From contig JACPTE010000012.1 of the NCBI GenBank assembly GCA_016192945.1, forward strand, positions 9,557-73,556: a DNA stretch of 64,000 nt, given 5' to 3'. Below the pieces are notes generated by a model. It saw only the letters and a program-made list of their open reading frames with translations. It had not been told where the DNA came from and did not search any database. This document shows positions 10,666 to 61,007 of the stretch, one piece after another (position 1 is the stretch's first letter; each line of letters opens with the position of its first letter). The stretch comes from Candidatus Woesearchaeota archaeon (GTDB taxonomy: Archaea > Nanobdellota > Nanobdellia > Woesearchaeales > UBA10216). A program made the position numbers and the translations under genes.

Positions 10666-10705
10666 GCAATTGCAGGGTTTAATCAGTTCAAACAACAGAA
10701 TTCCA

Positions 10706-11647: not shown

Positions 11648-11660
11648 CAGATCACCTGTT

Positions 11661-24446: not shown

Positions 24447-25112
24447 TCAGTAGAACTCAAGCTCCCCTTCTGAATAAATCCCTTTCATCAGCTTTACAGG
24501 CCTCCAGTCATCAACAACCAGCTTTGCCCCAAGCCAGTCTGCCAGCTCCTGCGGGTTTCCTATGGTTGCAGAAAGGCCTATGATTTGCGCGTTTTTAAGG
24601 AGCTTTTTCAGCATGGTTATTATAATTTCAAGTGTAGGCCCCCTCTCAGGCTCGTTGAGAAGGTGTATCTCGTCCACAACTATTACGCCAACCATGCTTA
24701 TCCAGGGCGCGTAATGCCTAATCAGGCTGTCAAGCTTTTCAGAGACTGTGATTATCAGGTCGTATTCGGCAAGGTAAGGGTCTGCTGAGTCAAGGTCGCC
24801 TATTGACAGGGCTATCTTCAGAAAGCTCCCGTACCTGGCTTTGAAGTCGTTGTATTTCTCATTCGCAAGGGCTTTCAGGGGAACTATATAAACTGCTTTC
24901 CTGTTCCTGCCTAATATGGCTGATACTGCTGCAAGCTCTGCAATCAGGGTTTTTCCAGAGCTGGTTGGAGTGCATACGAGGACATTCTCCCCATCAAGCA
25001 GCCCGGCGGCTATTGCCTTTTCCTGGGCAGGCCTCAGCTCCTTTATCTCGCTGTCAAGCACAGCGTATAATTGCTCAGGCACTTTTCCCTTTAGCTCATG
25101 AAGTTTCATCAT
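24447..25112 (-). pseudogene. truncated Hel308/Ski2-like helicase (N-terminal RecA1 domain only)
   Basis: 221 aa with Walker A TPTSSGKT, DEIH box, SAT; ends at ...DDWRPVKLMKGIYSEGELEFY*, where full-length Hel308 continues for ~500 aa; ~400 bp of ORF-free AT-rich DNA follow. Confidence 0.6.
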
Positions 25113-33584: not shown

Positions 33585-34118
33585 ATGTTTATTAACCCTG
33601 CTGAGTGCTGCTTTCTCATGGTTGTTCCTTCAAGAAGGGAATGCTTTGAGCTGCTCTGGAGCCATAACGTGCCCCAGAACATCATCAGGCACAGCATTGC
33701 TGTGAGCAGGATTGCAGCAGATGTTGCACAGGGCCTGTTGCTGAGGCGCAAGCGGATAAACCTTGAACTGCTGGACAGGGCCTGCCTTCTCCATGACATT
33801 GGGAAGCTGAAGGCTATCCAGACAGGGGGAAACCATGAGGAGATTGGCTATGAAATCCTCGCAAAGCATGGATATGGCGAGGTTGCTGAAATAATAAGGA
33901 AGCATCCTGTTCACTATATCTATGATGCCGTGAACAGGCCCAGCTCCTGGGAGGAGAAGGTTCTTTATTACGCTGACAAAAGGGCAAATGGCCATAAGGT
34001 TGTCTCCCTGAGGGAAAGGTTTGCTGATTTCAGGAAGCGCTACCAAAATTTCAGGGAAAGCATAGACAGGGCAGAGCCCCTGGCTGCCAGGCTTGAGAAG
34101 GAACTGCTCAGTCCATAA
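33585..34118 (+). CDS. HD-domain phosphohydrolase
   Basis: H...HD motif (LLHDIGK) and downstream His/Asp residues. Confidence 0.7.
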   Translation: MFINPAECCFLMVVPSRRECFELLWSHNVPQNIIRHSIAVSRIAADVAQGLLLRRKRINLELLDRACLLHDIGKLKAIQTGGNHEEIGYEILAKHGYGEVAEIIRKHPVHYIYDAVNRPSSWEEKVLYYADKRANGHKVVSLRERFADFRKRYQNFRESIDRAEPLAARLEKELLSP

Positions 34119-34129: not shown

Positions 34130-34882
34130 TTATAGCTTCCTGAACAGCTCAAACAAGTCGTCTGCCCTTTTCAATGGGAGCGAGCCTGAAACCCCCTCTG
34201 GCATGTACAGGCCGCTGACTGGCGACTTGTAGAAGGCAGCAGTGATGCCTGGCTGCCTGTTTGAAAATCCCTGAACAGACCTTACTCCCCTTTCCCTGCG
34301 CATATCCGACTCGCTTAGATTTTTTTCATCCATCATAAGCAGCAGGCTCAGCAGGTATGAATCTATGTTTGCATCCCGCAGCCTGTAAACCTGCATTCCG
34401 GCTTTTTCAGGGCCATAGAAAAACGGCACTATTCCAACAGGGCTTGTCTCGTATACCCAAAGGTTTGGATTTGGAGCCATTAACATTTCATCTCCTTTCC
34501 ATACACCATTCTGAACTCCCTTATTATATACCTCGTGAAGGTTCCATATTTCAAAGTCATCAGGGCTTGGCGGCAGGTCGTAATTTCCGCCTGCAATCTT
34601 GTGCGTGTGGCAGCTTGCAAGGACTATGCCCTTTACACCCTGGAATATAAGGTGCTCTTCAAGGTTGGTTTCCCCTGTATCGCCCTGGATTACATCGCTT
34701 ATGTAAATCCCGCTTTCATCTGCCTCTACTGTGAGCCCGTATTCCCTCACCCTTCTGTAGTCCCTTTCCTTTCCAAAATCCTGGAAAGTCCTGTCTCTAA
34801 TCTCTGCGAATCGCGCTCTGAATTCAGGGGATTCAACTATGTTTTTCAGGGTTACTTCCTCAAGATTCAGCATTGCTGCCAT
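34130..34882 (-). CDS. hypothetical protein with a JAMM/MPN-like HxH...S..D motif
   Basis: 250 aa; EEH...ASCHTHKIAGGNYDLPPSPDD. Confidence 0.3.
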   Translation of the reverse strand: MAAMLNLEEVTLKNIVESPEFRARFAEIRDRTFQDFGKERDYRRVREYGLTVEADESGIYISDVIQGDTGETNLEEHLIFQGVKGIVLASCHTHKIAGGNYDLPPSPDDFEIWNLHEVYNKGVQNGVWKGDEMLMAPNPNLWVYETSPVGIVPFFYGPEKAGMQVYRLRDANIDSYLLSLLLMMDEKNLSESDMRRERGVRSVQGFSNRQPGITAAFYKSPVSGLYMPEGVSGSLPLKRADDLFELFRKL

Positions 34883-34965
34883 ATTGTGAAGGCAGGCTCA
34901 GGCAGGGTATTTAAATCTTTCTATTTTTACTACTATTGAATTACTATAATTTAGGCTGCTGAACT

Positions 34966-35491
34966 TTATTTTCTTGTGGTCACCTTTCTTAGTGTTTTTT
35001 TATACTGTTTCACTAAAAACTCAACAGTTGGCTTTAGATTCTGGTTCTTTTGGTATTCGTGTAAAGTCCGGTAGTATTCTGCCCTGTCTTCCAAGTTTAT
35101 GCTTATGGGGGGATATTTTCTCTTTAAGAGAATGAAATTCAGAAGCAGCCTTCCGACCCTCCCGTTCCCATCCTGAAAGGGATGCACATATTCGAACTGA
35201 TTGTGTATGATTGCCGCCAATACCAGAGGCTTGAATTTATTTTTATTCTGCTCGTACCAAGAAACCATATCCCTTAATGCAAGGCTAAGATGAGAAACAC
35301 TAACCCTTTGCATTTTTAATGTATAATTGCTGCCATTCTTTTCTGTCCAGATGGATGATTTTGATTTCATCATCATACTTGTTCAGCTTTTCAATCTGGT
35401 TCCTGGTTAATGTAAAAAGAAATACATCAGTGTTCAGTTCTTCCAAAATCTCGAAGATATACTTTGCCGCTTTATCTTTGCCTTCTTCCAA
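34966..35491 (-). pseudogene. frameshifted/truncated Fic-domain gene (tandem paralog of the intact Fic gene)
   Basis: 136-aa ORF with Fic motif HPFQDGNGRVGR plus an overlapping 63-aa ORF in another frame; lacks the N-terminal ~100 aa found in the neighbouring intact Fic. Confidence 0.5.
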
Positions 35492-35763
35492 GATTGGATA
35501 AGCCTGAAAGCATCTTTAGTGTTTACGCAGTCTGTAAGCCTCATTCTGCCATCTTCAGCTGGCATTTTCAACTGTAAACAAATTGTTAACAGTTGGGGTT
35601 CTCTGCTTTTTAATACACCCCAGTATTGCCTTGGGCTGAGACTCTCTGTCAGTGCTTGAACTATATCAGTAACTGAGAAATACCACTCATCATTATGCCA
35701 GATTCTTCTTATTTTCTTATCCTGAAATACTACTAGTGCTTTGTCTTTGTCCATTTTGACCAA
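35434..35763 (-). CDS. Bro-N/KilA-N-like domain protein (antirepressor-like)
   Basis: 109 aa; ALVVFQDKKIRRIWHNDEWYFSVTDIVQALTES pattern of Bro-N domains. Confidence 0.4.
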   Translation of the reverse strand: MVKMDKDKALVVFQDKKIRRIWHNDEWYFSVTDIVQALTESLSPRQYWGVLKSREPQLLTICLQLKMPAEDGRMRLTDCVNTKDAFRLIQSWKKAKIKRQSISSRFWKN

Positions 35764-35878
35764 CTATCAATCTTAACTTGTCTCAGACTTTTAAATATCT
35801 TTCCCCCACCTGTCCATTGTCCAGTGGGGAACTGAAGAATTAATAGCCCGTGCGGACACTCTATTTTCTTGTTAAAAG

Positions 35879-36733
35879 TCAGGGCTTTCTAAGGAATTCT
35901 TTGTGTCTGCTCAGATAGCGCTTTATCAGGTAGTTTACAAAATCATTTTCGGTCTTGCTCAATGCATGATAATATGACTTCCTCCTCTTATATTCAATTA
36001 TAAGCAGCGGGTATCCTCCATTTTTCAGTATGTGTGCAATGATAAGCCTGCCAACTCTGCCGTTTCCGTCTCCAAAGGGGTGTATCTTCTCAAATTTGTA
36101 GTGGGCACGGGCAGCGAGCTCCAAAGGGTGCATTATTTTCTTGTTTTTGCAATACCAGGAAAAGAGTTCCTTCAGCAGAGTTGGAACATCTTGCCAGTCT
36201 GGCGCCCTGTAGTCTCCTACTCGAACCAAGTATTCCCTGATTTTGCCGGCAATATCTGGCTTTGTATCCTTGAATAATTCATAGTGCCATTTCAAGATAA
36301 GATTTCCGGATAATTCTTTCTTTTCATTTAGTGCGCTGAAAAACACTTTGGAGTGAGCGATTGTTTCCAAGATATCTGGTAATGGCTTGTTGGGGGATAT
36401 TCTCTTCTCAAGTATCTCCTGTGTTTCTTCCTTTGTGATTTTTGAGCCTTCTATGGCGTTCGTGTTATAGGTGAAATCTATAGAAAAATCAAGGAGTATT
36501 TTCTTTTTTATTGTTTCAGGGTACCTTTTCCACTGCTCCTTGAAGCTCTTCCTTATCTTTTCAAGCTTGACAAAAGCTTCCTCATTTAGGATTTTTCTTA
36601 GAAAAGCCTCTTTTGTCAGTTCAATATCATTGGGCACAGTCTTGCCCAGGTAAATTTCCCGGTAAGTAGGCCTCCCTGACTTCCTGAATGAATGGCCAAG
36701 GTAATAATAGCCTCTCTTTTGCACGATTTGCAT
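35879..36733 (-). CDS. fic: Fic family protein (AMPylase-like) with internal inhibitory motif
   Basis: 284 aa; Fic motif HPFGDGNGRVGR; TNAIEG matches the [ST]xxxE[GN] inhibitory helix. Confidence 0.8.
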   Translation of the reverse strand: MQIVQKRGYYYLGHSFRKSGRPTYREIYLGKTVPNDIELTKEAFLRKILNEEAFVKLEKIRKSFKEQWKRYPETIKKKILLDFSIDFTYNTNAIEGSKITKEETQEILEKRISPNKPLPDILETIAHSKVFFSALNEKKELSGNLILKWHYELFKDTKPDIAGKIREYLVRVGDYRAPDWQDVPTLLKELFSWYCKNKKIMHPLELAARAHYKFEKIHPFGDGNGRVGRLIIAHILKNGGYPLLIIEYKRRKSYYHALSKTENDFVNYLIKRYLSRHKEFLRKP

Positions 36734-36897
36734 AGAAATCTATATGCCATTACAAATATAAAAAAGTTTCGTTATTTAGAACGAATGTAATGGTATAGCC
36801 CCGGGCGGACATACCATAAATTTGTAACTGTTTTGGGATTTTTTGTTTTTCAAAGTATTCTGCTAAACTACCCCTGGCTAAAGCACCCAGGTTTCTT

Positions 36898-37164
36898 TCA
36901 AAAGAGCGCCCCTAAAAATCGTTCTACTTCTGCCTTGTTCTCATCATCATATCCTCCTAGCCCGTGCAGATATCGAATAACATTTATATAAAACCGTATA
37001 TGGTTCAATGAGTCTGCTTCTTTACCTGAAACTTCAGGATGGGACCCCATCATTGCGTATTGAAGGATTGCATCAGTGCAGTGTTCAATTAAGTCTCCTG
37101 CTGTTCTGAGCTGGTATCTTCTCCCTAATTCAATAACTTTTTCAAGCCCTTCTCCCAAGGTCAT
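36898..37164 (-). CDS. hypothetical protein
   Basis: 88-aa ORF tightly spaced (1 nt) behind the 157-aa ORF; no motifs. Confidence 0.3.
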   Translation of the reverse strand: MTLGEGLEKVIELGRRYQLRTAGDLIEHCTDAILQYAMMGSHPEVSGKEADSLNHIRFYINVIRYLHGLGGYDDENKAEVERFLGALF

Positions 37165-37165
37165 A

Positions 37166-37636
37166 TTACCAAAATTCTCTTAAATATTCTTTTCGCGAAT
37201 TTAACTCTGCAACTAAGTTAGACGGGTCCAAACCATATTGGATGCACAATCCTACGTCTTTTTGAAGCAACTCAATGCGTGCCTGTAGAGTGCGTCTTAA
37301 TTGGACCCTTTCTTCTAAGGTAAGCTGTCCATTTTGTTTTACTGCAGTTTCCAGACCTTCACCGTTAATTATGACAGTAGTTCCTCTGCCAACATACGCA
37401 TCGGGGGGCTCAATATTGCAAACTTCATATACGACATAGGTTTTATGTCCGCCGATTATGTAATCTATCTTCACAGGTTGTCCTTCATGAAGTTCCATGC
37501 CGAACAATTCCTGTTTTTCGTCTCTTCGGAGTATTATTTCTTCTGCAGTTACTATACAACCAAGAGAATGCAGCCCTTTAGCATCAATTGGTGTTAATAC
37601 GACTTTTGAAGCTTCTGGTGCTTGGTAATCCGCCAT
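37166..37636 (-). CDS. hypothetical protein
   Basis: 157 aa from MADYQAPE; ORF is open to 37852 but that extension overlaps rps12. Confidence 0.35.
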   Translation of the reverse strand: MADYQAPEASKVVLTPIDAKGLHSLGCIVTAEEIILRRDEKQELFGMELHEGQPVKIDYIIGGHKTYVVYEVCNIEPPDAYVGRGTTVIINGEGLETAVKQNGQLTLEERVQLRRTLQARIELLQKDVGLCIQYGLDPSNLVAELNSRKEYLREFW

Positions 37637-37725
37637 ATGTTTTATTTTTTCTTTTTGGTTACGATTCAAAAAATCAGCCGCATCCGGATTCCCGTATCCA
37701 ACCGGGAAATCAGATTTCCTGATGC

Positions 37726-38163
37726 TTACTTCCTTGCCTTCTCTATCTTTCCTGAGAGAAGCGCCCTTAGTGACTGGTCGTTGACCTTGATTACCTGCCA
37801 CCTTACGCCAGGTATGTCGCCCTTTGCACGCCCCTTGTTCCCGCCGATGCACTCTATCACGACTTCATCGTGCTCGTCCATCATCTTTATTGCGCCGTCC
37901 CCTGGGGCAAAGGCTGTGACCTGCCTTCCGTTCTTGATAAGCTGCACCCTTACTGCCTTTCTCATTGCCGAGTTTGGCTGCTTTGCCTCTATCTGGACTT
38001 TTTCAAGGACAAGCCCTTTTGCCTGCGCAGCCCCTTCAAGGGGGTCTGACCTCTTCTTAAGGTCAAGCAGCCTTTTAGTGTATTTTTCAGAACTCCACTT
38101 AAACCTGGCCCTTTTCTGCATGAGCTTTTTGCCTGAATTCAACCCATTTGATTTTTTCCCCAT
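37726..38163 (-). CDS. rps12: 30S ribosomal protein S12 (uS12)
   Basis: 145 aa; [29 protein letters not shown] signature. Confidence 0.9.
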
Positions 38164-38867: not shown

Positions 38868-38894
38868 TTTAACGGCCTCTTTGGCTTGCGGATT

Positions 38895-39275
38895 TTATTG
38901 TGGCACTGCCTCCCCGCTTCTGAAGCTGAACCTCGCATATGATGCATGGCAGCTCCCATCAGGATATATCCTGGGCGTGCTGAATATTTCTGCTGTCCCT
39001 GCATTCCGATTTACCATCAGGGTTCCTATTCTTTGCTGCGGCGGCTGCCCCTGCTGCTGAAATATCTGCCCTGCTGCTGCCTGGTAAAGGACTGCTCCGC
39101 TTTCATCTTTAGCTATAATCATGTCTGATGCTGGCTTTCCTAAAACGGCATTTACAAGCTGCCCTATGCAAGAGGGTGCAGGCACTACTTCAATTGTTCC
39201 GCCAGGCACATGGATTTTGAGGCTTCCTCCTGCCAGGCTTCCACAATGGTCCCTGACTAAAATAGCGTCAAGCAT
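38895..39275 (-). CDS. hypothetical 126-aa protein inserted between rpoA'' and rpl30e
   Basis: ATG directly abuts the rpoA'' stop; Gly/Ala/Pro/Gln-rich, GC-rich; no recognisable family. Confidence 0.3.
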   Translation of the reverse strand: MLDAILVRDHCGSLAGGSLKIHVPGGTIEVVPAPSCIGQLVNAVLGKPASDMIIAKDESGAVLYQAAAGQIFQQQGQPPQQRIGTLMVNRNAGTAEIFSTPRIYPDGSCHASYARFSFRSGEAVPQ

Positions 39276-39277
39276 GC

Positions 39278-44918: not shown

Positions 44919-46419
44919 TTTTTGCCTCTATTATTTTTGTGGTGCTCTTCACTCCGAACCCCCTTAATGCCTTTATCAGCTCCTCTTCCTGCGAGTCCTG
45001 CGAGACTGTTGCAAGAAGGGCAAGATTCTTCTTGAGGCCTATGTTTGTTCCCTCAGGCGTTTCAATAGGGCACAATCTCCCAAGGTGCGTGCAGTGAAGC
45101 TCCCTTGCCTCAAAGTTTTCCTGTGTAGCAGATAATGGGCTGACTACCCTTTGAAGGTGTGAAATAGTCTCAAGGAAGTTCAGCCTTTGCATTCTCTGGC
45201 TGATTCCCTTTCTTCCCCCAGCCCATGAGCCTGTTGCCATTGAGCTGTAAATCCTTGATGTCAGGAGCTTTTCCCTGATTATCACCTTGATGGTCGGGAA
45301 TTTCCCCCTCTTGACTATCCTCTGGAAATTGTAAAGCAAATCCCCGATTAGCACCTTTATGTTCACCCTTACAAGGTCTGCAAGCAGGTCGCCGCTCAGC
45401 TTGAGCCTCTTGTTGGCGTAGTTGTCCTTGTCGTCAATCTCAAGCTCGCCCCTTATTGTGAGTATGAGCTTCTTAAGCATCTTGCACAGGTTGTATGCCT
45501 TGACCATCCTGTCCCTGGGCAATGTTCCCAAGTGGGGAAGAAGATATTTGTCCAGGATTTCCCTCATCCTTTCTATCCTTATTTCCTTTGACTGGGTGAT
45601 TCCGGACCTTTTTGCAATGTAGTCAACTGCTTCCTCTTCAGTCTTTATCTCGGCTGCCTCAAGCATATTAACTATTATCTCGTCAAACTCCCTGTCTGCC
45701 GAGACAAACCTCATTATGTCCTCATCCTTGGTCAGCCCAAGAGACTTTATTACAACTATTATCGGGATTCTCCTCACCCTCGTGAATGTCAGGTAGAATA
45801 TTCCGTCCCTGAGCCGTTCCATGGTGTGAGGTATCTTGTATGAGCCGTATTCTGAGAAAAGCTTCCCCACAAACTTGCTCGGCCCTGTTGACTCGGTGTC
45901 TGTGATAAACTTGTTTGATGCGAGGTCCTCCACCTTTACAAGCACCTTCTCAGTGCCATTTATTATGAAATACCCGCCTGGGTCGTCAGGGTCTTCACCC
46001 TGCTGTATCAGCTCTTCCCGCGGGAGCTTGTACAGGTGGCACTGCCTTGATTTAAGCATTATAGGGAGGTTTCCTATCTGCGTCTCAAATGACTCCCTCT
46101 GGGCGCCGTTTATGTGCGCGCTGACAGTGATGAACATGGGTGCTGCGTATGTTATCTTCCTGAGCCTTGCCTCTATGGGGAATATTTTTCTCCTGCTTCC
46201 GTCAGCCTCAGTCATTTCAGGCTTTGTTATCCTTATCCTGTCAAACTTTATCTTGAATTCCTCTACATTGGCAGGTATTATTGTTGGCTCTATCTCCCTG
46301 TTTTCGTCTATTATCTTTGGAAGCTCCTGCTCTACGAAATTGTTGAATGACTCTATGTCTGACTTGATGAATGACTGCTCATCAAAATATTTCCTCATCA
46401 GGATTTCATAATTAACCAT
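44911..46419 (-). CDS. rpoB2: DNA-directed RNA polymerase subunit B'' (N-terminal part of split B)
   Basis: 502 aa; 8-nt overlap with rpoB' as in euryarchaeal split rpoB. Confidence 0.9.
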   Translation of the reverse strand: MVNYEILMRKYFDEQSFIKSDIESFNNFVEQELPKIIDENREIEPTIIPANVEEFKIKFDRIRITKPEMTEADGSRRKIFPIEARLRKITYAAPMFITVSAHINGAQRESFETQIGNLPIMLKSRQCHLYKLPREELIQQGEDPDDPGGYFIINGTEKVLVKVEDLASNKFITDTESTGPSKFVGKLFSEYGSYKIPHTMERLRDGIFYLTFTRVRRIPIIVVIKSLGLTKDEDIMRFVSADREFDEIIVNMLEAAEIKTEEEAVDYIAKRSGITQSKEIRIERMREILDKYLLPHLGTLPRDRMVKAYNLCKMLKKLILTIRGELEIDDKDNYANKRLKLSGDLLADLVRVNIKVLIGDLLYNFQRIVKRGKFPTIKVIIREKLLTSRIYSSMATGSWAGGRKGISQRMQRLNFLETISHLQRVVSPLSATQENFEARELHCTHLGRLCPIETPEGTNIGLKKNLALLATVSQDSQEEELIKALRGFGVKSTTKIIEAKNG

Positions 46420-46663
46420 TCACAACCACTCTGTAAAAGACATTCCTGCCCGCAGTGGAGCTGTTCCTTGTTATCTGCATTACATCTCCAGGCTTTGCTC
46501 CCACCCCTGCAAGCATAGGGTCGCTTTTCAGTATCCTGGGAAGCTCAGAAGTTGTCACGTTGTATTTTTGCAGAAGCTCTTCCTTTTCCTTGTCGCTGAG
46601 CTTCTGGTATTTCGGCACTAGGATGTGTTTTTTTACGTCAATCTTCTTATTCATTTTAGGCAT
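46412..46663 (-). CDS. rpoH: DNA-directed RNA polymerase subunit H (Rpb5 homolog)
   Basis: HILVPKYQKLSDKEKEELLQKYNVTTSELPRI...FYRVVV; start chosen at MPKMNKK (or MNKK at 46654); the longer ORF to 46723 would overlap tRNA-Lys. Confidence 0.75.
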   Translation of the reverse strand: MPKMNKKIDVKKHILVPKYQKLSDKEKEELLQKYNVTTSELPRILKSDPMLAGVGAKPGDVMQITRNSSTAGRNVFYRVVVNG

Positions 46664-47782: not shown

Positions 47783-49075
47783 ATGATGGAATTTAGTGAA
47801 TTGAAGTTAGAGGATGATTTAATCAGGGTCGCCGTGGAATCGGGATTCAAGGAGCCTACAGCCATCCAGGCCAAGGCTATCCCGCTTATAAAGTCAGGCA
47901 GCGATCTGATAGGCCAGAGCGAGACAGGCTCTGGGAAGACTGTGGCCTTTGTGCTTCCCATTCTTGAAAAGATTGCCCGCGGAGGAGGCGTCCAGTGCCT
48001 TGTCCTGACACCTACAAGGGAGCTGGCTGAACAGGTTGCCAGCGAGTTTTCCAGATTCGGGAAATACAGGCACGCAACTATTTCAGCGGTATATGGGGGC
48101 GTTGAGATAAACCCCCAGATAAACAGAATCAGGCATTCAGAAATCGTGGTTGCAACCCCTGGCAGGCTCCTGGACCACCTTTCAAGGAGGACAGTGGACC
48201 TGAGCAGGGTGAAGTTCCTCATTCTTGACGAGGCTGACAAGATGTTTGACATGGGCTTCATCGGGGATGTGAAGGAAATAATCAGCCATACCCCGAGGAA
48301 CAGGCAGACTCTACTCTTTTCTGCTACAATCAGCCACGACGTTATGGAGCTTTCAAGGAGCTACATGAACAGCCCGGCCAGCGTCAAGTCAAGCCATCTT
48401 GTTGACAAGAAGTTCCTAAAGCAGGAATACTATGATTCCTCGCCCAGGGACAAGTTCTCGCTGCTGCTTCACCTGATAAAGCAGGAGAATCCGGGATTGG
48501 GAATGGTTTTCTGCGCAACACGCACCAGGACTGACTCTGTTGCGAGGAACCTGCACAAGAACAACGTTGAGGCGATTGCCCTTCACGGCGGCCACAGCCA
48601 GAACAGGAGGAACGCCATAATCAGGGATTTCCACTCAGGCAAGATACACATACTTGTAGCAACAGACGTTGCAGCCAGGGGCCTTGACATAAAGAATGTC
48701 ACTCATGTTTTCAACTTTGACATTCCAAAGACCTCGCAGGAGTATGTCCACAGGATTGGAAGGACTGCAAGGGCAGGGAAGTCAGGCAAGGCAATTTCCA
48801 TCCTTTGTGATATTGACCACGACAATTTCAGGAGGGTTTTGGATGACCGCACACTGGTAATTGAGAAGATGCCTCCCCAGAGCTTCGCAAGGGTTCCTTT
48901 CATTGCAAGGCAGCATGATGCTGGAGACAGGAAGTTCGGGAATAGGCCTCGCCCAGGAGGCGGCAGGTTTCACCCTATGCCAAGCCACCCACGGCGTTCA
49001 CCTGGCAACAGGAGCGGATATGGCAGCAGCTATGGCCACAGAAGGCAGCACAGCTCTCCAGGATTAAGGCAATAG
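47783..49075 (+). CDS. DEAD-box ATP-dependent RNA helicase
   Basis: Q motif, GSGKT, PTRELA, DEAD (LILDEADKMFDMGF), SAT, HRIGRTARAG; Arg/Gly/Ser-rich C-terminal tail. Confidence 0.85.
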   Translation: MMEFSELKLEDDLIRVAVESGFKEPTAIQAKAIPLIKSGSDLIGQSETGSGKTVAFVLPILEKIARGGGVQCLVLTPTRELAEQVASEFSRFGKYRHATISAVYGGVEINPQINRIRHSEIVVATPGRLLDHLSRRTVDLSRVKFLILDEADKMFDMGFIGDVKEIISHTPRNRQTLLFSATISHDVMELSRSYMNSPASVKSSHLVDKKFLKQEYYDSSPRDKFSLLLHLIKQENPGLGMVFCATRTRTDSVARNLHKNNVEAIALHGGHSQNRRNAIIRDFHSGKIHILVATDVAARGLDIKNVTHVFNFDIPKTSQEYVHRIGRTARAGKSGKAISILCDIDHDNFRRVLDDRTLVIEKMPPQSFARVPFIARQHDAGDRKFGNRPRPGGGRFHPMPSHPRRSPGNRSGYGSSYGHRRQHSSPGLRQ

Positions 49076-49102: not shown

Positions 49103-49228
49103 TCCCCACGGCCGGATTTGAACCGGCAGCCTTTCGGGAACGGCTGGCTAAGCTTCATCAACAGCCAGATGGCTTTTTTCTGCATAGCATATCTACAGCC
49201 GAACGCTCTGCCGTTGAGCTACGCGGGG
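49103..49228 (-). tRNA. tRNA-Tyr (GUA) with a 54-nt canonical intron
   Basis: Exons 49228-49193 and 49138-49103: CCCCGCG acceptor, GCUC/GAGC D stem, UUCGG-CUGUAG[intron]C-CCGAA anticodon arm, GCCGG-UUCAAAU-CCGGC T arm. Confidence 0.65.
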
Positions 49229-51370: not shown

Positions 51371-53635
51371 TCATCCCACAATCCTGCTTACGTGCTCTTC
51401 CTTTCCGATTCTTATTACGCTGCTGACAAAGCTCTCTATCTTTGACTCGTGGCTGACTATTATCAGCTGGTTTGTGTTGAGCTGCGCTATCACGTCCCTT
51501 ATCCTTTCAAGCTGCTCGCTGCTGAACCCCTCTGTCGGCTCGTCAAGGATGAGGAGGTTTCTTGTCTTTATGGTTGAGACAAGGTCATTTATTACCCTGT
51601 TAAGCGCCAGCCTGTATGAGAGGGCGCAGCTTGTCCTCTCCCCCCCTGACAGGCTTTCAAACACCTGCTCGTACCCGTTCTGCTCTATCACTGGCGTGAA
51701 GTCCTCGTCAAGCCTTATGCTGAGCGTATTGTCTTCCATAAGCGTGCTGAACCAGCTTTGGAAGAATGCGTTGAACTCATTGTATACCTTGAGCATGACC
51801 TGCTGTTCCATCAGCCCCATCATGCTTATGAAGTGCTCGTCCATCCAGTGAGCTGTCCTCTTAAGCTGCTCTGCCTCGCTTTTTATCCCTGTTTTCTTAG
51901 CTATCTCGGTGCTTATCAGCCCTATCTCCCTATTCAGCGAGTCTTTCCTGCTGTTAAGGGATGCGCATTGCATGCTCAGCGCCTTTTCATTCCTCAGCAG
52001 CTCATCAAGCCCTGACCTGCCTTCCCGGATTTGCTTTTCAAGCTCCCCGAATTCACCCATCCTGCTGCTTTCCAGCTCAAGCCCTGCAACCAGCCCCTTA
52101 ATATCCACTGCAAGCGCTGCAGCCTTTTCCTTCAGGGACTTTATCCTTATTTCCCTCTCCTCAAGCAGCTGCTCGTATTGCCTGCTTTCCCTTATCAGCC
52201 GGTTTATCCTTCGCAGCTCTGTTTCATCCGGAGCGTCAAGATGGCTTGATGCCTGCATTTTTTCATGCAGCTTTTGCTGCAGCCCTGCCTCTGCAGCGGT
52301 TTCAAGGCACATTGATATTTCTGCGCTTATGCCAGCCAGCTGCCGTTCCTTCTCACGAAGCAGGCAGATTTCCTTTTTCAAGCCGGATATCTTCAGCTCA
52401 AGCCTGCTCTTGCTGGCGGAGGTTTCTGATAACAATGCAACTGCCTTTTCCATTTTCTCGCGTTCAAGTGTAATTATATGGCTCTTGTGCTCATCGCTTA
52501 CCGGCTGCCTGCAGGTTGGGCAGGTCTCAAGCGAGGATACGCTTCCAGCCACCTTTTCTGACAGCTCCACAATGTACTGCTGCTTCCTGATTTCTGCGCT
52601 TGCCCTGCCCAGCTCCTCTTCAAGACCTTCCAGCTCCTTTTCCAGAATCGCTTTCCTGCCGGATTCCTCAACCAGCCTTTCCTTTTTTTTCATTGAGCAT
52701 GCAAGCATCCCTGCAAATGTGTCGTGCAGCTTTTTTCCCTCCTCGTTCTTTTTCTTCAGCTCCCCTGTTTCCAGCCCAGCCCCTGCCAGCTCTGTTTCAG
52801 CATCTTTCAGCGAATTTTTCCTTTCCCTGATTCTGGCTGAAAGGACCTCTATGAGCTTCTTGCGCTCGTACATCTGCCTTGATTTCTCCTCAAGGCCTTC
52901 GTTATGCCTTTTTTTACTTTCAATCAGCCCTTCAAGAGCGACTATTTTTGGCGTGACCTGGGCGATTGACTCATCTATTCCTGAAAGCTCCTTTTCCAGC
53001 CCATCCTTTCTTGCCCCGATTTGCGGAAGGTCCTCTACCCTGGCTGAGAGCTCCCTTATCCTCTCTTTCGTGCTTTTTATTATAAACAGGGCATTGTCCC
53101 TAATCCTCTTGTACTTGTCTATGTTGAAGACCCTCCTGAGAGTGTCAAGCCTGTTAGTGTTGTTGTCCATCAGTATGAGCTTCATCTCCTCCTGTGGCGT
53201 GTAAACAGTATACCTGAAGATAAGGGATTTTGATTTTGTAAGGAGTTCCTTTGGATAACCCAGCAGCTCAAGCACCCTTGCCTTAAGCTCTGTCGGCGTT
53301 CCCTCCTGCCTTTTCCCGTCAACTACAATGTAGCCTTCATCCTGCCTCACAGAGTCCTTCAGCCTCTTAAGTCCCCTTTTAACCAAAACGATTCTCCTGT
53401 CAATAGTCAGCTTTAATTCTACTTCCCCAAAGTCCCTCCCATTCCTGAGCAGTGTTGAGCCGTCAACACTTGAGGTAAGCCCAAAAAGGGCAAACTCTAT
53501 AGCGAGAAGTATGGTTGATTTGCCTGTGCCGATATCCCCGCTCAGCATTATGCTTCCTGTAGGAAATTCTATGAACGCATCTGTATAGCTCCTTATGTTG
53601 TGCAGCCTCAATGAATGGATTATCACAACTGACAT
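51371..53635 (-). CDS. rad50: DNA double-strand break repair ATPase Rad50 (SMC-like)
   Basis: Walker A GDIGTGKST, long coiled coil, zinc hook CPTC, signature SGGE, Walker B LILDEPT; no mre11 adjacent. Confidence 0.8.
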   Translation of the reverse strand: MSVVIIHSLRLHNIRSYTDAFIEFPTGSIMLSGDIGTGKSTILLAIEFALFGLTSSVDGSTLLRNGRDFGEVELKLTIDRRIVLVKRGLKRLKDSVRQDEGYIVVDGKRQEGTPTELKARVLELLGYPKELLTKSKSLIFRYTVYTPQEEMKLILMDNNTNRLDTLRRVFNIDKYKRIRDNALFIIKSTKERIRELSARVEDLPQIGARKDGLEKELSGIDESIAQVTPKIVALEGLIESKKRHNEGLEEKSRQMYERKKLIEVLSARIRERKNSLKDAETELAGAGLETGELKKKNEEGKKLHDTFAGMLACSMKKKERLVEESGRKAILEKELEGLEEELGRASAEIRKQQYIVELSEKVAGSVSSLETCPTCRQPVSDEHKSHIITLEREKMEKAVALLSETSASKSRLELKISGLKKEICLLREKERQLAGISAEISMCLETAAEAGLQQKLHEKMQASSHLDAPDETELRRINRLIRESRQYEQLLEEREIRIKSLKEKAAALAVDIKGLVAGLELESSRMGEFGELEKQIREGRSGLDELLRNEKALSMQCASLNSRKDSLNREIGLISTEIAKKTGIKSEAEQLKRTAHWMDEHFISMMGLMEQQVMLKVYNEFNAFFQSWFSTLMEDNTLSIRLDEDFTPVIEQNGYEQVFESLSGGERTSCALSYRLALNRVINDLVSTIKTRNLLILDEPTEGFSSEQLERIRDVIAQLNTNQLIIVSHESKIESFVSSVIRIGKEEHVSRIVG

Positions 53636-53724
53636 GTCGGTTTTGTTTTATAAAAAGGTTGTTGGTTGTTTGAATTAAAACGCATATAAGAAATCAGATA
53701 TTGCTGATATTATGACCTGGCATT

Positions 53725-54735
53725 TCAGCTATCCCTGAACTTCCTCCTGAGCCTTGCCTTGAGCTCCTCAACAACAGGCACTGGTGTCGGGTCTGTGCTG
53801 TAGTTCAGCGCAAGGTAGTATGAAACATACATCCCTGTAAGGATTGCAGTGAACAGCTTTGTTATGAATGACCTTCCCTTGAGCACTATCTGGGTTGATT
53901 CAACCCCTGCTTTGGATATTATATCCTTGCTTATCGCCATCCTTTCCCTGACCCTTTCGTGGTCAAGCTCATCCTGCAGGATTACAGCATAATATTTAGC
54001 CTGCATATTCCTGAAGGCATTTATCTCGTTGTGGTTCATCTCAGGGAACACATTGCTGAAAGCGTGTGCTTTTGAGCACTCGTTTATGAGTATCTTCCAT
54101 ATGTATGCTGCTATCCCGAGCTGTGTTGACGCGTAAATAAGCGGTATTTTCCCTGTGAGCTTTGACGCCAGCTCCCTTGACTGCTCCCTTACACTTGAGC
54201 GCCTCAGGAAGTCAGCTGTTTTCCTGATTTCGCCTTCAACATCCCTTATGTACCCTGAATTTGCAAGCACTGTAAGCATAGGCATGAACATGTATGCCAG
54301 AGAAAGCCTCGGCTGTATTCCTGCAGGAACCAGTATGAGCGGTAGGCTTTTCTCATCTGCAATCTGCCTGAGCTTCCCCCCTGATGTTATAACAATTATC
54401 TTGCAGCCCTTTCTCACTGCGTTCTTCAGCGTGCTTATTGTTTCCTCAGTGTTTCCAGAGTAGGATATCGCAAAAACAAGAGTCTTGCTGCCTACGAACT
54501 CAGGAAGCGAATAATCCCTAACAACCAGAACAGGGGTTTTCAGCCCTATGCTTTGCGCGTATGCCTTGAGCATATCCCCTGGATGGCCTGAGCCCCCCAT
54601 CCCTGCAACTATTATCTGGGTTACCTCGCCGGTTATCTTTATCTTCCCTGCAAGGCCTGCAGCCTCCTCTATCTGCTTGGGAAAATTGTCAAGGACCCCT
54701 ATCATGTTTCCGCTGTCTACCTCGCTTTCAGGCAT
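53725..54735 (-). CDS. bifunctional phosphoglucose/phosphomannose isomerase (SIS domain)
   Basis: 336 aa; SIS motif IIVAGMGGSGHPG and AISYSGNTEET. Confidence 0.7.
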   Translation of the reverse strand: MPESEVDSGNMIGVLDNFPKQIEEAAGLAGKIKITGEVTQIIVAGMGGSGHPGDMLKAYAQSIGLKTPVLVVRDYSLPEFVGSKTLVFAISYSGNTEETISTLKNAVRKGCKIIVITSGGKLRQIADEKSLPLILVPAGIQPRLSLAYMFMPMLTVLANSGYIRDVEGEIRKTADFLRRSSVREQSRELASKLTGKIPLIYASTQLGIAAYIWKILINECSKAHAFSNVFPEMNHNEINAFRNMQAKYYAVILQDELDHERVRERMAISKDIISKAGVESTQIVLKGRSFITKLFTAILTGMYVSYYLALNYSTDPTPVPVVEELKARLRRKFRDS

Positions 54736-55140
54736 GCCCGGATTCTATCCTGCATCTTATATAAATTTTGTGCGAGGGGCTGATTGAATCCGCCGAGAGC
54801 GTAGCCCGAGAGTGCAACATACCCGAATTCCCCGAAGGTCTGAAATCATTTGAAAATTAAGAATAATCCGAAGATTATTGGGATAACAACATACCCAATA
54901 AAATGTGATACGACTCCAAATTTACCTCATCAAAACCTTTCTTTATAGGAGATATTTTTAGATACAAAGAAATTAATGTTGAAACTATGATTATAACGAC
55001 TAAAAATATTTTTAAAATATTTTTTTCCATTTTTATCCATCCAATAAAATTTCTTTGTCTTTTAACATAACTATTAGTTTAAGAGATGACTTTATAAAGT
55101 TTCTACTTCCGGCGGCTGAGGAGGAAAGCCTCAAGAAGAG

Positions 55141-55302
55141 TCAAAGGGCAAAGTTTGCAGGAAAAAGTCCCGGCATGGTTAGCCTGACTATTCCGACGAG
55201 CCGCCCATTGTTGTTATCCAGGTGGTTGTTGCCATCAGCCCTGCCATTATTGATATTATCATTGAGCCTAGCCACAAACCACAAGCGGCAGGTAGTAGCC
55301 AT
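55141..55302 (-). pseudogene. diverged duplicate of the 3' end of the gene at 55480-56304
   Basis: ~95-nt similarity between 55193-55290 and 55640-55740; encodes CRLWFVARLNDNINNGRADGNNHLDNNNGRLVG versus GRLWFVAGLGGSISSGGAVGVNHLGSDGGRFVG. Confidence 0.35.
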
Positions 55303-55479
55303 TCCACTTAAAATTTCCTCACTGCCGCTTCATTTCTGTTGCAGCTGAATTTTATAGCAACAATGTTGCCGTAGTGGAAAGGCGTGTAGTTCCAAGCTAC
55401 ACCTCAACACACATCCTCCTTGTAAAGGATGATGCGTAGCCGGGACAAATAACAAAAAAGAACACACTCATATAAAAAA

Positions 55480-56304
55480 TTACTTGTAAAGCGGCTTCAA
55501 AGCCGCACGGACATCAGTTCCAAAGCCAGCTCTGCCAACCTCAGCAACATATTTCCCAGCGGCAGATAAAACAACATTAACAGTCTGGTCAAGAGTTGGA
55601 CCTGCAACCCCACCTGTAACGGCGCGCGCCTCCGGCGCTACCCCGACGAAACGCCCACCGTCGCTACCCAGGTGGTTGACGCCAACAGCCCCGCCACTAC
55701 TGATACTACCACCGAGCCCAGCCACAAACCACAAGCGGCCAGCCGCTCCTTCAGAAGGAACAGTAGAATGATAAATTCCCATCAGATTGCCATCATAACC
55801 AAACCTTTCTTTGGCCTGAGCAAAAGTAGAATCAACAAACCCAGCAAGCAAGGACTTATCCCCTCCCGCCAAAGCAAGCCATCCTGGATTGATTTTAGCG
55901 TCAGAGCTTCCAAGAGGCTTGTTAAAATAACGCTCTACCTGCTGAGGACTGAATTCCTCACCTTCCAAACCCCTATAAAAGTCATTACTCAAAGGAACAG
56001 CACCATTGACCAGAACCTTTTCCGGTGTGAACTGCCTCAAGTATTCAGCATCAGGAACTATTTTCAGCCTGCCATCACTATGCCTAACAGCACCATCACC
56101 AGTATCAACATAATTGTCCCACCACGCAAGCTTAACCTCATCAGGCACTCCTGAAGCAAGAACTTCCAAACGCCTCTTCATGAGACCGGAAACAGATAAT
56201 GGGCTTCTGCCTTCTGCAACAAGCAAAGACATCTGCTCAACAGTACTTCCATAAAACTCCATATAATCAGCAACAGGAATGTTCAGTTGTAAGCTCATGT
56301 TCAT
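55480..56304 (-). CDS. hypothetical protein (Gly/Ala-rich C-terminus), compositionally atypical
   Basis: 274 aa; GC-richer than the flanks; no recognisable family. Confidence 0.35.
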   Translation of the reverse strand: MNMSLQLNIPVADYMEFYGSTVEQMSLLVAEGRSPLSVSGLMKRRLEVLASGVPDEVKLAWWDNYVDTGDGAVRHSDGRLKIVPDAEYLRQFTPEKVLVNGAVPLSNDFYRGLEGEEFSPQQVERYFNKPLGSSDAKINPGWLALAGGDKSLLAGFVDSTFAQAKERFGYDGNLMGIYHSTVPSEGAAGRLWFVAGLGGSISSGGAVGVNHLGSDGGRFVGVAPEARAVTGGVAGPTLDQTVNVVLSAAGKYVAEVGRAGFGTDVRAALKPLYK

Positions 56305-56410
56305 ACCCTCTATTTGTTAAGGAATTAAACGCCCATATATAAACTTTTTCATTTATTTGTTACCATGAAGTAGTATTGAAATTGGGCCGTTAGAATTATT
56401 CCGATTAGTT

Positions 56411-57040
56411 TCAAATAGCTTTTCTTCTGCTCCTGCTCTTAACGCTTGCCAAAACACAGCTTACCTCATCAAAACTGATTGAACTGTCATTGAGCCTTGC
56501 TTTTATCTGCTTAAGCTTGTCATCAGGGCTTCCAATTTTTTGCAGAATCCTGATTACTTTCTCCTTCTGCATAATCTTCCAGACAGAAAGCTGGTTATAC
56601 TGGATAAGCATTGCCAAGTGACCCCAAACCGTTGAATCCTTTATGCCTCTTCTCTTTGCTATTTCCGCAACGCTCAGACCTTTCTTAAGCAAATATGCTG
56701 TTTGCTGACTGCTGAGAGGAAACCGTGCCTCTTCAGATTTCTTTGCAAAGTTACTTTCCTTTTTGCTATTAACAGGTTGCTCCCGTTGCTCCTCCGAAAA
56801 ACAATGCGCCAAAAGTCTGGTCAGATGCATCCTATATTTATATGTGTCCGCATGCGAAACATAGGCAAGCCACCCTTCAAACCTCTCAATAAATTCCTCT
56901 TGCCCAATAAGCTTTAATTTGTATAGCTCCTTTAGCTCCTCAAACCTCTTCTCAAATTTCCTGAGGTTTTTCCTCCTCACGAGCTTATGATAAAAAAATA
57001 TCCTGAACCCCAAGAATCCAACGCCATTATTAAGCATCAA
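56411..57040 (-). pseudogene. N-terminally truncated reverse transcriptase (group II intron maturase-like thumb/X domain) with C-terminal LuxR/sigma70-r4-like HTH
   Basis: Begins at ...NNGVGFLGF (post-YxDD region); FIERFEGWLAYVSHADTYKYR resembles the GWxNYY X-domain; HTH LSSQQTAYLLKKGLSVAEIAKRRGIKDSTV; frame upstream is closed by stops within 8 codons. Confidence 0.45.
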
Positions 57041-57242
57041 TATCTTGCATTTATTCCTTTCTCAATCCGGGCTACTTCTTCATAACAGCCGCAAGCGGCT
57101 GATTAAAGTTCCTGCCAAGCCAACAAGATGAAGTCAAGTTAGGTGTCTTGACTTTCTTTGGTTGAAGTGATAGAACCATAATCCGAAGAATGCTAAAGCT
57201 CCTTTTAGGCTTTGGAAAGTGCTGAACCACTTGATTCTGCGC

Positions 57243-57295
57243 TTAATTTCCCTATTCAGCCTTTCAACTTAATTTCCCTATTCAGCCTTTCAATA
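57243..57295. repeat. tandem 26-bp direct repeat (TTAATTTCCCTATTCAGCCTTTCAAC x2) spanning the transposase stop codon
   Basis: seen in sequence; a second tandem 13-bp repeat (TAGCACTTTTGA x2) lies at 58020-58045 near the other IS end. Confidence 0.5.
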
Positions 57296-57951
57296 AACCA
57301 GTTCCTTCCAATTCCACTGCTGACCACATGCCTTTTCCTTTGCTCTTTATAATTCCAGCCAATCTCTTTCTTAATCGCATAATTGTATTGCTCTAAGCCA
57401 TCCGTGATGATTCTTTTAGGCCTTACTCCAGATACTTGCATTGCTGTGCTCAGAAGGATGCGTGCATCCTTAATTCGTCTTGTCTTGCTAATGTGCCAAG
57501 AAAGAACTCCGATTTTGTCATAAACTATCCAAAGCCAATTACCCTTTCCTTTGATTTTCACATAAGTTTCGTCTGCGTGCCAAGTTGTTGGCACGGCGAT
57601 TTCTCGTCGGGAAATCGGCTTTTTTGTTGTTAATACCCATTGCCTTATAGCTTCTCGGCTGAATTTTACGTTAAATATTTGCAATAACAATTCAGCTATT
57701 CCTTCTAACGAAATTCCTTTTTTCAAATCCGTATAGATTTCAACAGCAAAACCGATAATGTGGCTGAATGTTCTTCTTCTTGGCAAGTCACTTGTCCAAA
57801 CAAAGCGAAACCCGCATTTTTTGCACTCATATTTTTGAAAGCCTTGCTCGTTTTTGCCTTTTCTGTAAAAGTCTTCTTCACCGCATTTTTTGCAAAAGGC
57901 GCAAAGCGAACCTTTTTTATAGCTAAAGCTACTCAAATCTGTTTGTATCAT
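57256..57951 (-). CDS. IS6-family DDE transposase with N-terminal zinc finger
   Basis: 231 aa; CAFCKKC...CKKCG zinc finger; WHADETYVKIKGKGNWLWIVYD...D..E typical of IS6/IS26-like transposases. Confidence 0.8.
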   Translation of the reverse strand: MIQTDLSSFSYKKGSLCAFCKKCGEEDFYRKGKNEQGFQKYECKKCGFRFVWTSDLPRRRTFSHIIGFAVEIYTDLKKGISLEGIAELLLQIFNVKFSREAIRQWVLTTKKPISRREIAVPTTWHADETYVKIKGKGNWLWIVYDKIGVLSWHISKTRRIKDARILLSTAMQVSGVRPKRIITDGLEQYNYAIKKEIGWNYKEQRKRHVVSSGIGRNWFIERLNREIKLKG

Positions 57952-58108
57952 TTCGTGTACTCCGGGCGGAGGGCAGCTTCAGCTGCCTGAGCCCGAATTT
58001 TCTAGAAGAAAACAACTATTTAGCACTTTTGATTAGCACTTTTGACACTTAACTTGACTTTGCCAGCCAACAATAACTTTTATAAATACTTGTCTTTTTC
58101 CAGACTGC

Positions 58109-58687
58109 ATGAACATGTACCAGTACCTGACCAGGGCATGGAATAATCCTTCTGACAGGCATCAAGAGATTATGCAAAAGAGAATGGTTGAATGGAGGGC
58201 TGAGCCATCTACCTTGAGGATTCCAAAACCCTCTAAGCTGGACCGGGCAAGGAAGCTCGGATACAGGGCAAAGCCAGGCATAATTGTAGTAAGGCAGCGG
58301 CTTGTCAGGGGAGGAAGGCAGAGGCCTGATATAAGGGCTGGAAGGCGAACAAAGCATTCAAGGCAGAGAAAGATTCTTAGTATGAACTACCAGCAGATAG
58401 CTGAACAGAGGGCTGCAAAGAGGTTTCCGAACACAGAGGTCCTCAACTCATATTTTGTTGCCAAGGATGGGACTCACTTCTGGTTTGAGGTCATAATGGT
58501 TGACAAGTCTCACCCGGTGATTGCATCAGACAGGCACCTTTCATGGATGTCTGGCGGCAAGCACAACCGCAGGGTTTTCAGGGGCTTGACATCTGCCGCA
58601 AGGAAGAGCAGGGGCCTGCTGCACAAGGGAAAGGGGGCAGAGAAGCTGAGACCCAGCATGCGCGCCCATGACCGGAAGGCCAAGTAG
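58109..58687 (+). CDS. rpl15e: 50S ribosomal protein L15e
   Basis: 192 aa; MYQYLTRAWNNPSDRH...RLVRGGRQRP pattern of L15e; TTTTATAAATA box about 25 nt upstream. Confidence 0.85.
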   Translation: MNMYQYLTRAWNNPSDRHQEIMQKRMVEWRAEPSTLRIPKPSKLDRARKLGYRAKPGIIVVRQRLVRGGRQRPDIRAGRRTKHSRQRKILSMNYQQIAEQRAAKRFPNTEVLNSYFVAKDGTHFWFEVIMVDKSHPVIASDRHLSWMSGGKHNRRVFRGLTSAARKSRGLLHKGKGAEKLRPSMRAHDRKAK

Positions 58688-58766
58688 GCTTCTTGTAAAA
58701 CGCTTATTGCATAACATTTATATATTTATTTTGACTATTTTTGATGCTATATAACCTGGTGTTACC

Positions 58767-58904
58767 ATGAAGCTTCACTGCTCTGACTGCAATTACCAGT
58801 TCACGCCTAAGACAGGGAAGGTTCCTGAAAGGTGCCCTTACTGCAGCAAGCCTGGAACAATAGAGAAGGTCAAGGAGATGCAGGAGTGGCTGGACGAAGT
58901 ATAG
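58767..58904 (+). CDS. small zinc-ribbon protein (45 aa)
   Basis: MKLHCSDCNYQF...RCPYCSKPG, CxxC-x15-CxxC; missing from the track. Confidence 0.4.
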   Translation: MKLHCSDCNYQFTPKTGKVPERCPYCSKPGTIEKVKEMQEWLDEV

Positions 58905-58919
58905 TTGCCTGAAAATTGG

Positions 58920-60033: not shown

Positions 60034-60108
60034 GTTGATTATCCATACGAACTAATATATAAATATTCCTATTTTTTTGTTATCCATGGGAGAATTAGGC
60101 GTGTTTGC

Positions 60109-60975: not shown

Positions 60976-61007
60976 CTGATTTTAGTTTAGCAGGCGCTTT
61001 AAAAAGT

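Follow-up and report, generated by a model that had tools for sequence, protein, structure and literature searches.

A small variable islet with Fic-type genes and a rare two-gene cassette between rps12 and an HD-domain gene in a groundwater Woesearchaeote

Introduction

In defense islands and other variable hot spots, conserved housekeeping genes enclose clusters of conflict-type genes, and the content of one and the same spot differs among relatives. Here we describe a locus of this kind in a groundwater Woesearchaeote (DPANN archaea). It lies in a stretch of 64,000 nucleotides from GenBank assembly GCA_016192945.1 (contig JACPTE010000012.1, positions 9,557 to 73,556 of the forward strand), which we call the window and in whose own numbering positions are given. 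Between rps12 and a gene for an HD-domain hydrolase, the window carries five genes that we name p157, p88, Fic1, the Bro-N–Fic gene (its Fic part is Fic2) and p250; together they form what we call the islet. The islet shares with defense islands the features just described and differs from them in its size of 3.6 kb, in having no mobility gene, and in its place at the 3' end of an RNA-polymerase/ribosomal operon.

One of the islet genes resembles SoFic, which is described as an AMPylating abortive-infection toxin (PMC12249575). DPANN archaea have been reported to be rich in SoFic, AbiE and PDC candidates (PMC12988326), so an intact Fic gene is expected here and is not surprising. An islet with Fic-type conflict genes is, as such, an ordinary kind of feature. 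The two small genes that directly follow rps12, p157 and p88, resemble type II toxin-antitoxin (TA) cassettes in their arrangement, and the N-terminal domain of p157 can be compared with the beta-clam of the CDC48/p97/VAT N-domains. Our reading, to which we give a probability of roughly 60%, is that a lineage-specific variable islet fills the gap between rps12 and the HD gene and is a mosaic of separately acquired conflict-type genes.

Results

The closest genomes have no islet between rps12 and the HD gene

Pfam profiles placed on the minus strand of the window the operon rpoH-rpoB''-rpoB'-rpoA'-rpoA''-rpl30e-nusA-rps12, whose nusA is of the KH type and whose last base is 37726. An earlier note, written from the letters of this DNA alone, had ended the operon at the same base and had reported five same-strand genes behind it (34130-37636); its coordinates and gene calls proved correct by open reading frames (ORFs) and Pfam (Table 1). 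Beyond the HD gene lies a gene for a SpoIIM-like membrane protein.

A scan of species-representative genomes for rps12 gave 80 loci, most of them labelled Woesearchaeota or Nanoarchaeota and the others labelled differently. By rps12 protein identity the closest were L002 (95%) and L003 and L004 (both 90%). In all three, rps12 is followed by an opposite-strand HD gene and then by SpoIIM, none of the island genes stands between rps12 and HD, and relatives of the five ORFs are found nowhere in these loci. The DNA homology between the window and L002 ends exactly at 37727 and restarts at 34078. The gap is empty in L002, while in L003 and L004 it holds an ORF for a hydrophobic membrane protein of ~85 aa (about 10630-10890). 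L002 has its own insertion close by, a gene for a 360-aa methyltransferase (11131-12213) between HD and SpoIIM.

The islet is also set apart by its composition. The segment 34883-37725 has a GC content of 0.394, the minimum for any stretch of that size in the window, and GC at third codon positions is 0.31-0.34 in p157 and p88 (0.31 in p157) versus 0.52-0.60 in the neighboring housekeeping genes. The composition of p250 is native-like (GC 0.479). The view that this is an accessory island, taken in the earlier note, is upheld by its being missing from the closest genomes, by its foreign composition and by its content of Fic and Bro-N conflict-type genes together with unassigned ones.

Independent Logan contigs, which are short and stem from a single groundwater study (eight sequencing runs), match the window at 99.3-99.9%. 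Two of them carry rps12, p157, p88 and Fic1 in this order (L001, L090), and others carry Fic2, p250, HD and SpoIIM (L082-L088). Because independent assemblies anchor both ends, both junctions of the islet are real. At the start of the Bro-N ORF and upstream of it, contigs either stop at 35820 (L090, L091) or begin at 35595, 35401 or 35304.

p157 and p88 form a rare, conserved pair that recurs at other loci

Word-seeded searches with p157, p88 and p250 returned only the proteins themselves. The p157 family came to light only when 1.84 billion (1.84e9) representative sequences were searched exhaustively with HMMER, which yielded 23 relatives of 132-280 aa (E 4e-31 to 9e-4); a scan of JGI metagenome contigs with two p157-family alignments gave no relatives. 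In the family alignment (A2), a conserved beta-rich N-domain of ~95 aa, with the pattern RDEKxEL…G..V.I.Y…G….V.Y.V…PP..YVG..T.V.I.GE, is joined by a linker of variable length to a C-terminal helical hairpin. The p88 protein (88 aa) is probably all-helical.

The pair recurs. In L094, an uncalled ORF that starts 2 nt after the p157 homolog shares 39% identity with p88 (E 1e-17); in L100 (GCA_053533825.1) the p88 homolog is a 99-aa ORF (32% identity, E 1e-9), which overlaps the p157 homolog by 4 nt. Window positions 51371-63168 have a syntenic counterpart in L100 (SMC-like, PGI, rpl15e, DUF1385, AlaX and RNase_H_2 genes, 54-77% identity). There, the p157-p88 cassette lies in the interval from PGI to rpl15e, and the interval from AlaX to RNase_H_2 encodes a Bro-N protein of 275 aa that shares 57% identity with the Bro-N domain of the window (spans noted for the cassette and Bro-N comparison, 4677-5404 and 8722-9549). 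In the window, the gap between PGI and rpl15e holds an IS-type transposase, an HTH protein, an unassigned gene and an RT-16 RNA. The hot spot at which a given accessory gene resides thus differs among related genomes. Consequently, we regard p157-p88 as a rare, conserved, translationally coupled cassette that this lineage keeps in its flexible gene pool; the earlier suggestion that the tight pair is a module is supported by its recurrence in L094 and L100. One further member of the family, in L096 (4849-5298), stands in a bacterial-looking setting with a BipA GTPase, a DEAD helicase, M23 and S66 peptidases and AbiEii. The p157 family may cross the boundary between archaea and bacteria.

Seven of 25 p157-family members match the Pfam model CDC48_2 (PF02933) over almost its whole length and at the same position, each time below threshold. 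In hhalign, a verified p97 N-domain aligned with p157 in the same register, residues 144-188 of p97 falling on residues 47-94 of p157. These matches are no more than suggestive of a CDC48_2 beta-clam fold for the p157 N-domain. In contrast to CDC48, p97 and VAT, where the beta-clam is the second part of the N-domain, p157 has neither the double-psi barrel nor the AAA ATPase; it is a free-standing protein of 156 aa that carries the C-terminal helical hairpin instead. A Foldseek search of the p157 model against the PDB gave no match at E<=0.001, a PDB profile search was uninformative, and a tblastn search of plasmids for archaeal CDC48 N-domains, intended for a profile, found none. P0018 and P0019 have C-terminal extensions, for which an Hsp20-like assignment was tried and dropped, as Pfam gave it no support.

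Amino-acid changes in p157 are confined to one short patch

We compared the Logan contigs with the window to analyze variation within the population. The variants of p157 are C73R, N74D, E76K, P78S, D79V, R84T, N91K and G92S, which make four haplotypes, the window sequence included. All eight change an amino acid and lie in codons 73-92, the hypervariable patch, which falls inside the region that aligns with p97. The rest of p157 and the whole of p88 had no variants, either nonsynonymous or synonymous. Nonsynonymous and synonymous variants numbered one and zero in Fic1, zero and three in p250, and one and 12 in rps12. The patch thereby has 8 changes at 45 nonsynonymous sites versus 0 at 325 synonymous sites in the rest of p157, p88 and Fic1 (Fisher p=2.7e-8), and its ratio of nonsynonymous to synonymous changes is 8:0 versus 2:16 elsewhere (p=2.9e-5). 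Within the patch, the family-invariant residues P77, G83, T86 and I90 did not vary. A further p88 variant from the databases, P0007, has the adjacent changes T21S and A22T.

Diversifying selection on an exposed hairpin of p157 is the most economical reading of this pattern. We hypothesize that p157 and p88 would form a complex, that the beta-rich N-domain of p157 would be a protein- or peptide-binding module, and that the exposed hairpin (codons 73-92) would set its specificity and be diversified by a fast-evolving partner.

One could alternatively take p157-p88 for a type II TA cassette, in which one protein would be a toxin that the other neutralizes by direct binding, and the variable patch would be the interaction surface that sets the specificity of the pair. 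Like such cassettes, it consists of two small, translationally coupled genes of foreign composition that recur as a pair in variable regions; they overlap or lie <=2 nt apart in three unrelated contexts (the window, L094 and L100), their neighbors in the window are Fic toxin-type genes, and amino-acid variants exist in both proteins. It differs in that the larger protein is encoded first and in that several p157 homologs stand alone. Moreover, no known TA fold is detectable in either protein, and neither matches a toxin, antitoxin, nuclease or DNA-binding family in Pfam, NCBIfam, PADLOC, PHROGs or the PDB. HEPN was considered for p88 and rejected, because its R20-x7-H28 does not fit the Rx4-6H spacing and no profile matched. 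Taking both sides together, we consider a type II TA system unlikely here, although it fares best among the alternatives to our reading of the islet.

The islet combines an intact Fic gene, a decayed Bro-N–Fic fusion and an orphan gene

Fic1 matches the Pfam Fic model with 78.1 bits against a cut-off of 24 (E 9.5e-22). The catalytic motif HxFx(D/E)GNGRxxR is present as HPFGDGNGRVGR (residues 218-229, 36047-36082), and the inhibitory motif (S/T)xxxE(G/N) as TNAIEG (residues 91-96, 36446-36463). The latter stands N-terminal to the Fic motif, which is the class II arrangement and that of SoFic; an intact Fic gene with an internal TNAIEG motif had already been recognized in the earlier reading of the letters. 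In PADLOC, the PDC-S04 model PDLC04836 is matched at near full length (8.3e-40, residues 73-280 on profile positions 15-230 of 244), and the SoFic core at profile positions 56-245 of 361 only (7.7e-29). Fic1 differs from SoFic/PDC-S04 proteins in an extra N-terminal segment of ~70 aa, and no small AS1-like gene is evident downstream of it. Judged by these likenesses, Fic1 is most likely an intact, self-inhibited Fic AMP-transferase-type enzyme of the PDC-S04/SoFic type. If it works as SoFic does, the helix with its inhibitory glutamate would hold the enzyme inactive; once triggered, for example by infection, Fic1 would add AMP to a cellular target. We know of no antiviral activity of PDC-S04 in archaea.

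The second Fic gene has both a Bro-N (Pfam 2.5e-6) and a Fic domain (3.7e-15). Three-frame translations put the two parts in one frame with stop codons between them, and the segment that links them (35300-35491) in another, which amounts to two frameshifts; in the Fic fragment, HPFQDGNGRVGR is intact (35149-35184). Contig L082 carries the same sequence, gapless and with both frameshifts kept. Since the frameshifts recur in this independent assembly, the Bro-N–Fic gene is a pseudogene, as the earlier description of a Bro-N-like ORF with a frameshifted second Fic copy had implied. The frame-corrected product of 264 aa has Bro-N at residues 14-104 and Fic at 157-211, and both parts match PADLOC PDLC04841, a Bro-N+Fic model of 292 aa classed as PDC-S04. 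The Bro-N ORF matches the N-terminus of PDLC04841 and of the PDC-S13 Bro-N model (4.6e-15 and 2.3e-32), and the Fic fragment aligns with PDLC04841 in its C-terminal part; unlike Bro-N–Fic fusion proteins, the gene in the window is broken. Fic1 and Fic2 are 44% identical over 102 residues. They are different sub-types, one with its own N-terminal inhibitory helix and the other fused to Bro-N.

The last gene, p250, is a real gene under purifying selection, because all three of its population variants are synonymous. It had no homologs but itself among 5.8e9 proteins, no match in Pfam (even at E<=5), PHROGs, PADLOC, NCBIfam or PDB sequences (E<=10), and none by tblastn in phage and plasmid collections. 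It is an orphan gene that purifying selection maintains in the islet. A JAMM-like HxH..S..D motif had been claimed for the 250-aa protein in the earlier note. The string itself, HTH-x11-SPDD in one-letter residue code, is there (34556-34609), with a spacing four residues over that of the JAMM pattern E...HxHx7Sx2D. It arises in 0.16% of p250 shuffles, yet 12 of 379 similarly sized ORFs contain the loose pattern, and p250 has no homologs in which its conservation could be compared. JAB, Prok-JAB and RadC profiles matched neither the whole protein nor residues 39-157 at Pfam E<=5; with no JAB/MPN match at that level, a JAMM/MPN assignment cannot be made.

Bro-N and Fic also occur in phage protein families, as PHROG matches attest, the GC content is low, and one gene is already a pseudogene. 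On these grounds, the islet might be what decay has left of a virus or plasmid that once integrated, its genes being leftover cargo without a current role in the cell. We hold this to be improbable, more so than a TA system. The islet has no integrase, capsid or replication gene, no tRNA target and no att-like repeat, and relatives are lacking both in phage genomes and in viral contigs scanned with p157, p250, Fic1, Bro-N and the family alignment. The synonymous-only variants of p250 and the intact, almost invariant Fic1 and p88 also speak against mere leftovers.

The operon break is older than the islet

Archaeal rps12 is expected to be followed by rps7 and fusA, and the earlier note had proposed that the island stands in their place. 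Among 74 informative Woesearchaeota loci, rps7 (Pfam 4.3e-37) lies <=1 kb downstream of rps12 in 52; it is missing from the whole locus in the other 22, namely L002, L003, L004 and 19 more. No rps7 is found within 10 kb of rps12 in L002, L003 and L004, nor anywhere in the window. The expected gene order is thus usual in Woesearchaeota as a whole and does not hold in the three closest genomes. Since rps7 is missing after rps12 in the closest relatives, the operon break is older than the island. The island occupies a pre-existing variable gap and displaced neither rps7 nor fusA; in its own clade, where the HD gene comes next, the operon had already ended at rps12.

The same note had seen one motif before both Fic copies and had taken it for a sign of tandem duplication that included the promoter. 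A 12-nt core, TGTCCGC(C/A)CGGG, is indeed present twice (36800-36811 and 35847-35858), but its second copy precedes the Bro-N ORF and not Fic directly, and its significance is weak: two matches versus 0.27 expected, with >=2 in 3 of 100 shuffles. An alignment of the two intergenic regions that bear the motif showed nothing beyond these 12 nt. At 44% identity, a recent tandem duplication of the Fic gene is not supported, and with flanks that cannot be aligned the promoter duplication finds no support either.

Taken as a whole, this older model, in which the island took the place of rps7/fusA and partly arose by tandem duplication of a Fic gene with its promoter, is very unlikely. It draws on the common rps12-rps7 order, on the repeated motif and on the presence of two Fic-domain genes. 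It has to contend with the closest genomes, where the HD gene follows rps12, and with Fic proteins whose N-terminal architectures are unlike; a motif repeated in this way would turn up by chance in about 3% of cases.

Other features of the locus and the window

The spacer between rps12 and p157 has a predicted RNA fold of -23.3 kcal/mol (z=-2.0) and is length-polymorphic in the population: four Logan contigs carry indels there, at 37668 and 37642-37644. Its stem-loop and T6 run may act as a terminator or a promoter. By eye, one A/T-rich TATA-like box each can be read ~25-45 nt upstream of the start codons of Fic1, Bro-N and p250, and we take these boxes for putative promoters.

Rfam detects an RT-16 RNA at 76 bits against a gathering threshold of 50 (E 5e-10), with no reverse transcriptase (RT) among its neighbors. 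Diversity-generating retroelements (DGRs) occur in DPANN archaea. That the p157 patch, with its sharply localized changes in amino acids only, is the variable repeat of such an element, shaped by targeted mutagenesis and not by selection, is nevertheless scarcely credible and was rejected as an explanation, given that neither a template-like copy of the patch nor, in six frames, an RT motif occurs in the window, that no RT is found among the ORFs scanned around the RT-16 RNA, and that the patch lies mid-protein, spans only 60 nt and keeps many of its adenines invariant.

Within the operon, six of the nine single-nucleotide polymorphisms between contig L001 and the window fall at 38908-39110, in the rpoA''-rpl30e spacer of ~410 nt. 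Contig L092 is nearly identical to the window except at its end, where 11 changes are clustered at 37810-37870 in the 3' part of rps12 (ten synonymous, and V102M); the cluster looks like a recombination tract or a strain chimera.

Farther away, the intein that interrupts the aRF1 gene has a LAGLIDADG homing-endonuclease domain with an embedded HTH_3 domain. A 126-nt Rfam tRNA match that ARAGORN does not report is probably an intron-containing archaeal tRNA. One 221-aa ORF has the DEAD half only of a DEAD-box helicase and may be a truncated paralog of the full-length helicase encoded elsewhere in the window.

Table 1 Features of the islet, its surroundings and the rest of the window
Feature	Position	Strand	Remarks
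rpoH	46412-46660	-	Pfam
Spacer between rpoA'' and rpl30e	38868-39277	-	126-aa ORF inside (38895-39275)
rps12	37726-38163	-	Pfam Ribosom_S12_S23 7.8e-43; final operon gene, left island boundary
Spacer between rps12 and p157	37637-37725	-	Stem-loop, then T6 run
p157 (156 aa)	37166-37636	-	First ORF after rps12
Hypervariable patch of p157, codons 73-92, CNIEPPDAYVGRGTTVIING	37361-37420	-	8/8 population variants of p157 nonsynonymous, all here
p88 (88 aa)	36898-37164	-	1-nt gap to p157, TAA-T-ATG
Short motif, copy 1, TGTCCGCCCGGGGCT	36797-36811	-	Between p88 and the TATA-like box of Fic1
Fic1 (284 aa)	35879-36733	-	Pfam Fic
Short motif, copy 2, GTGTCCGCACGGGCT	35845-35859	-	20 nt past the Fic1 stop codon, upstream of the Bro-N ORF
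Bro-N–Fic fusion, decayed	34966-35763	-	Bro-N ORF 35434-35763 and Fic C-terminal fragment 34966-35376
p250 (250 aa)	34130-34882	-	Orphan ORF
HD-domain hydrolase	33585-34118	+	Pfam HD 1.2e-13; convergent with p250, right island boundary
RT-16 RNA	55290-55444	-	Rfam; PGI-rpl15e gap
Unassigned 274-aa ORF	55480-56304		PGI-rpl15e gap; RT-16 RNA just downstream
HTH_40 protein	56411-57040		PGI-rpl15e gap
IS-type DDE transposase	57256-57951		PGI-rpl15e gap
aRF1 (eRF1 domains 1-3)	1199-3811	+	870-aa ORF, intein-interrupted
Partial DEAD-box ORF (221 aa)	24447-25112	-	DEAD half only
DEAD-box helicase	47783-49075	+	Full length
Candidate intron-containing tRNA	49103-49228	-	126 nt; Rfam

Discussion

We propose that the gap between rps12 and the HD gene holds a lineage-specific variable islet, a mosaic of conflict-type genes that were acquired separately. 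Several observations weigh against this proposal or against parts of it. At the locus itself, no independent contig spans 35595-35820, where the contig breaks are possibly due to strain heterogeneity; no integrase, transposase or flanking repeat marks the islet, and a search for direct or inverted flanking repeats as insertion marks gave chance-level matches only. The closest comparison genomes are only ~70-74% identical in DNA, so that for p250, with its native composition, loss in the relatives is conceivable in place of gain. For Fic1, the NCBIfam SoFic equivalog NF046030 gives 37.3 bits, far below its cut-off of 550; the protein is shorter than SoFic (284 vs ~361 aa) and is without the SoFic C-terminal domain, and PDC-S04, a single-gene Fic system in PADLOC, is itself no more than a candidate for defense. 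For p157, the best CDC48_2 match stays at 22.1 bits against a gathering threshold of 22.4 (E 1.2e-4), the hhalign probability is only 15.8%, and the structure models are unreliable: single-sequence AlphaFold2 reached a pLDDT of 51 for p157 and of 32 for p250, both too poor to use. Finally, the p157 homologs in L093, L096 and L097 have no p88 partner, and the hypervariability was seen in four haplotypes, on short contigs and in one study.

For the pair of small genes we go one step further, tentatively and in the knowledge that the proposal is more likely wrong than right. In it, p157 and p88 would make up a kind of cassette for recognition or conflict that has not been described before; DPANN archaea, and possibly ultra-small bacteria too, would carry it, and it would hop among variable spots by ribosomal-protein genes. 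Its CDC48-N-like beta-clam would use the hypervariable hairpin to recognize a fast-evolving partner of viral or host-cell origin. Such a role is our inference, as are all biochemical activities, a part in defense and the binding of p157 to p88; what the sequences show directly is the anatomy of the islet, its absence from relatives, its foreign composition, the family assignments, the conserved pair and the localized hypervariability.

Two consequences reach beyond this locus. About 30% of the Woesearchaeota loci examined lack the textbook linkage of rps12 and rps7. As expected, the islet also adds a further example to the Fic-type single-gene systems of DPANN archaea. These archaea have tiny genomes and few classical defense systems, and what fills their rare variable spots therefore shows the conflicts that they face. 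The part of the islet worth following is p157-p88, which belongs to a very rare family (24 clusters among 1.84 billion representative proteins), moves between hot spots of related genomes and has accumulated localized amino-acid change in one natural population. An amino-acid excess so sharply localized is the signature usual at host-parasite interfaces.

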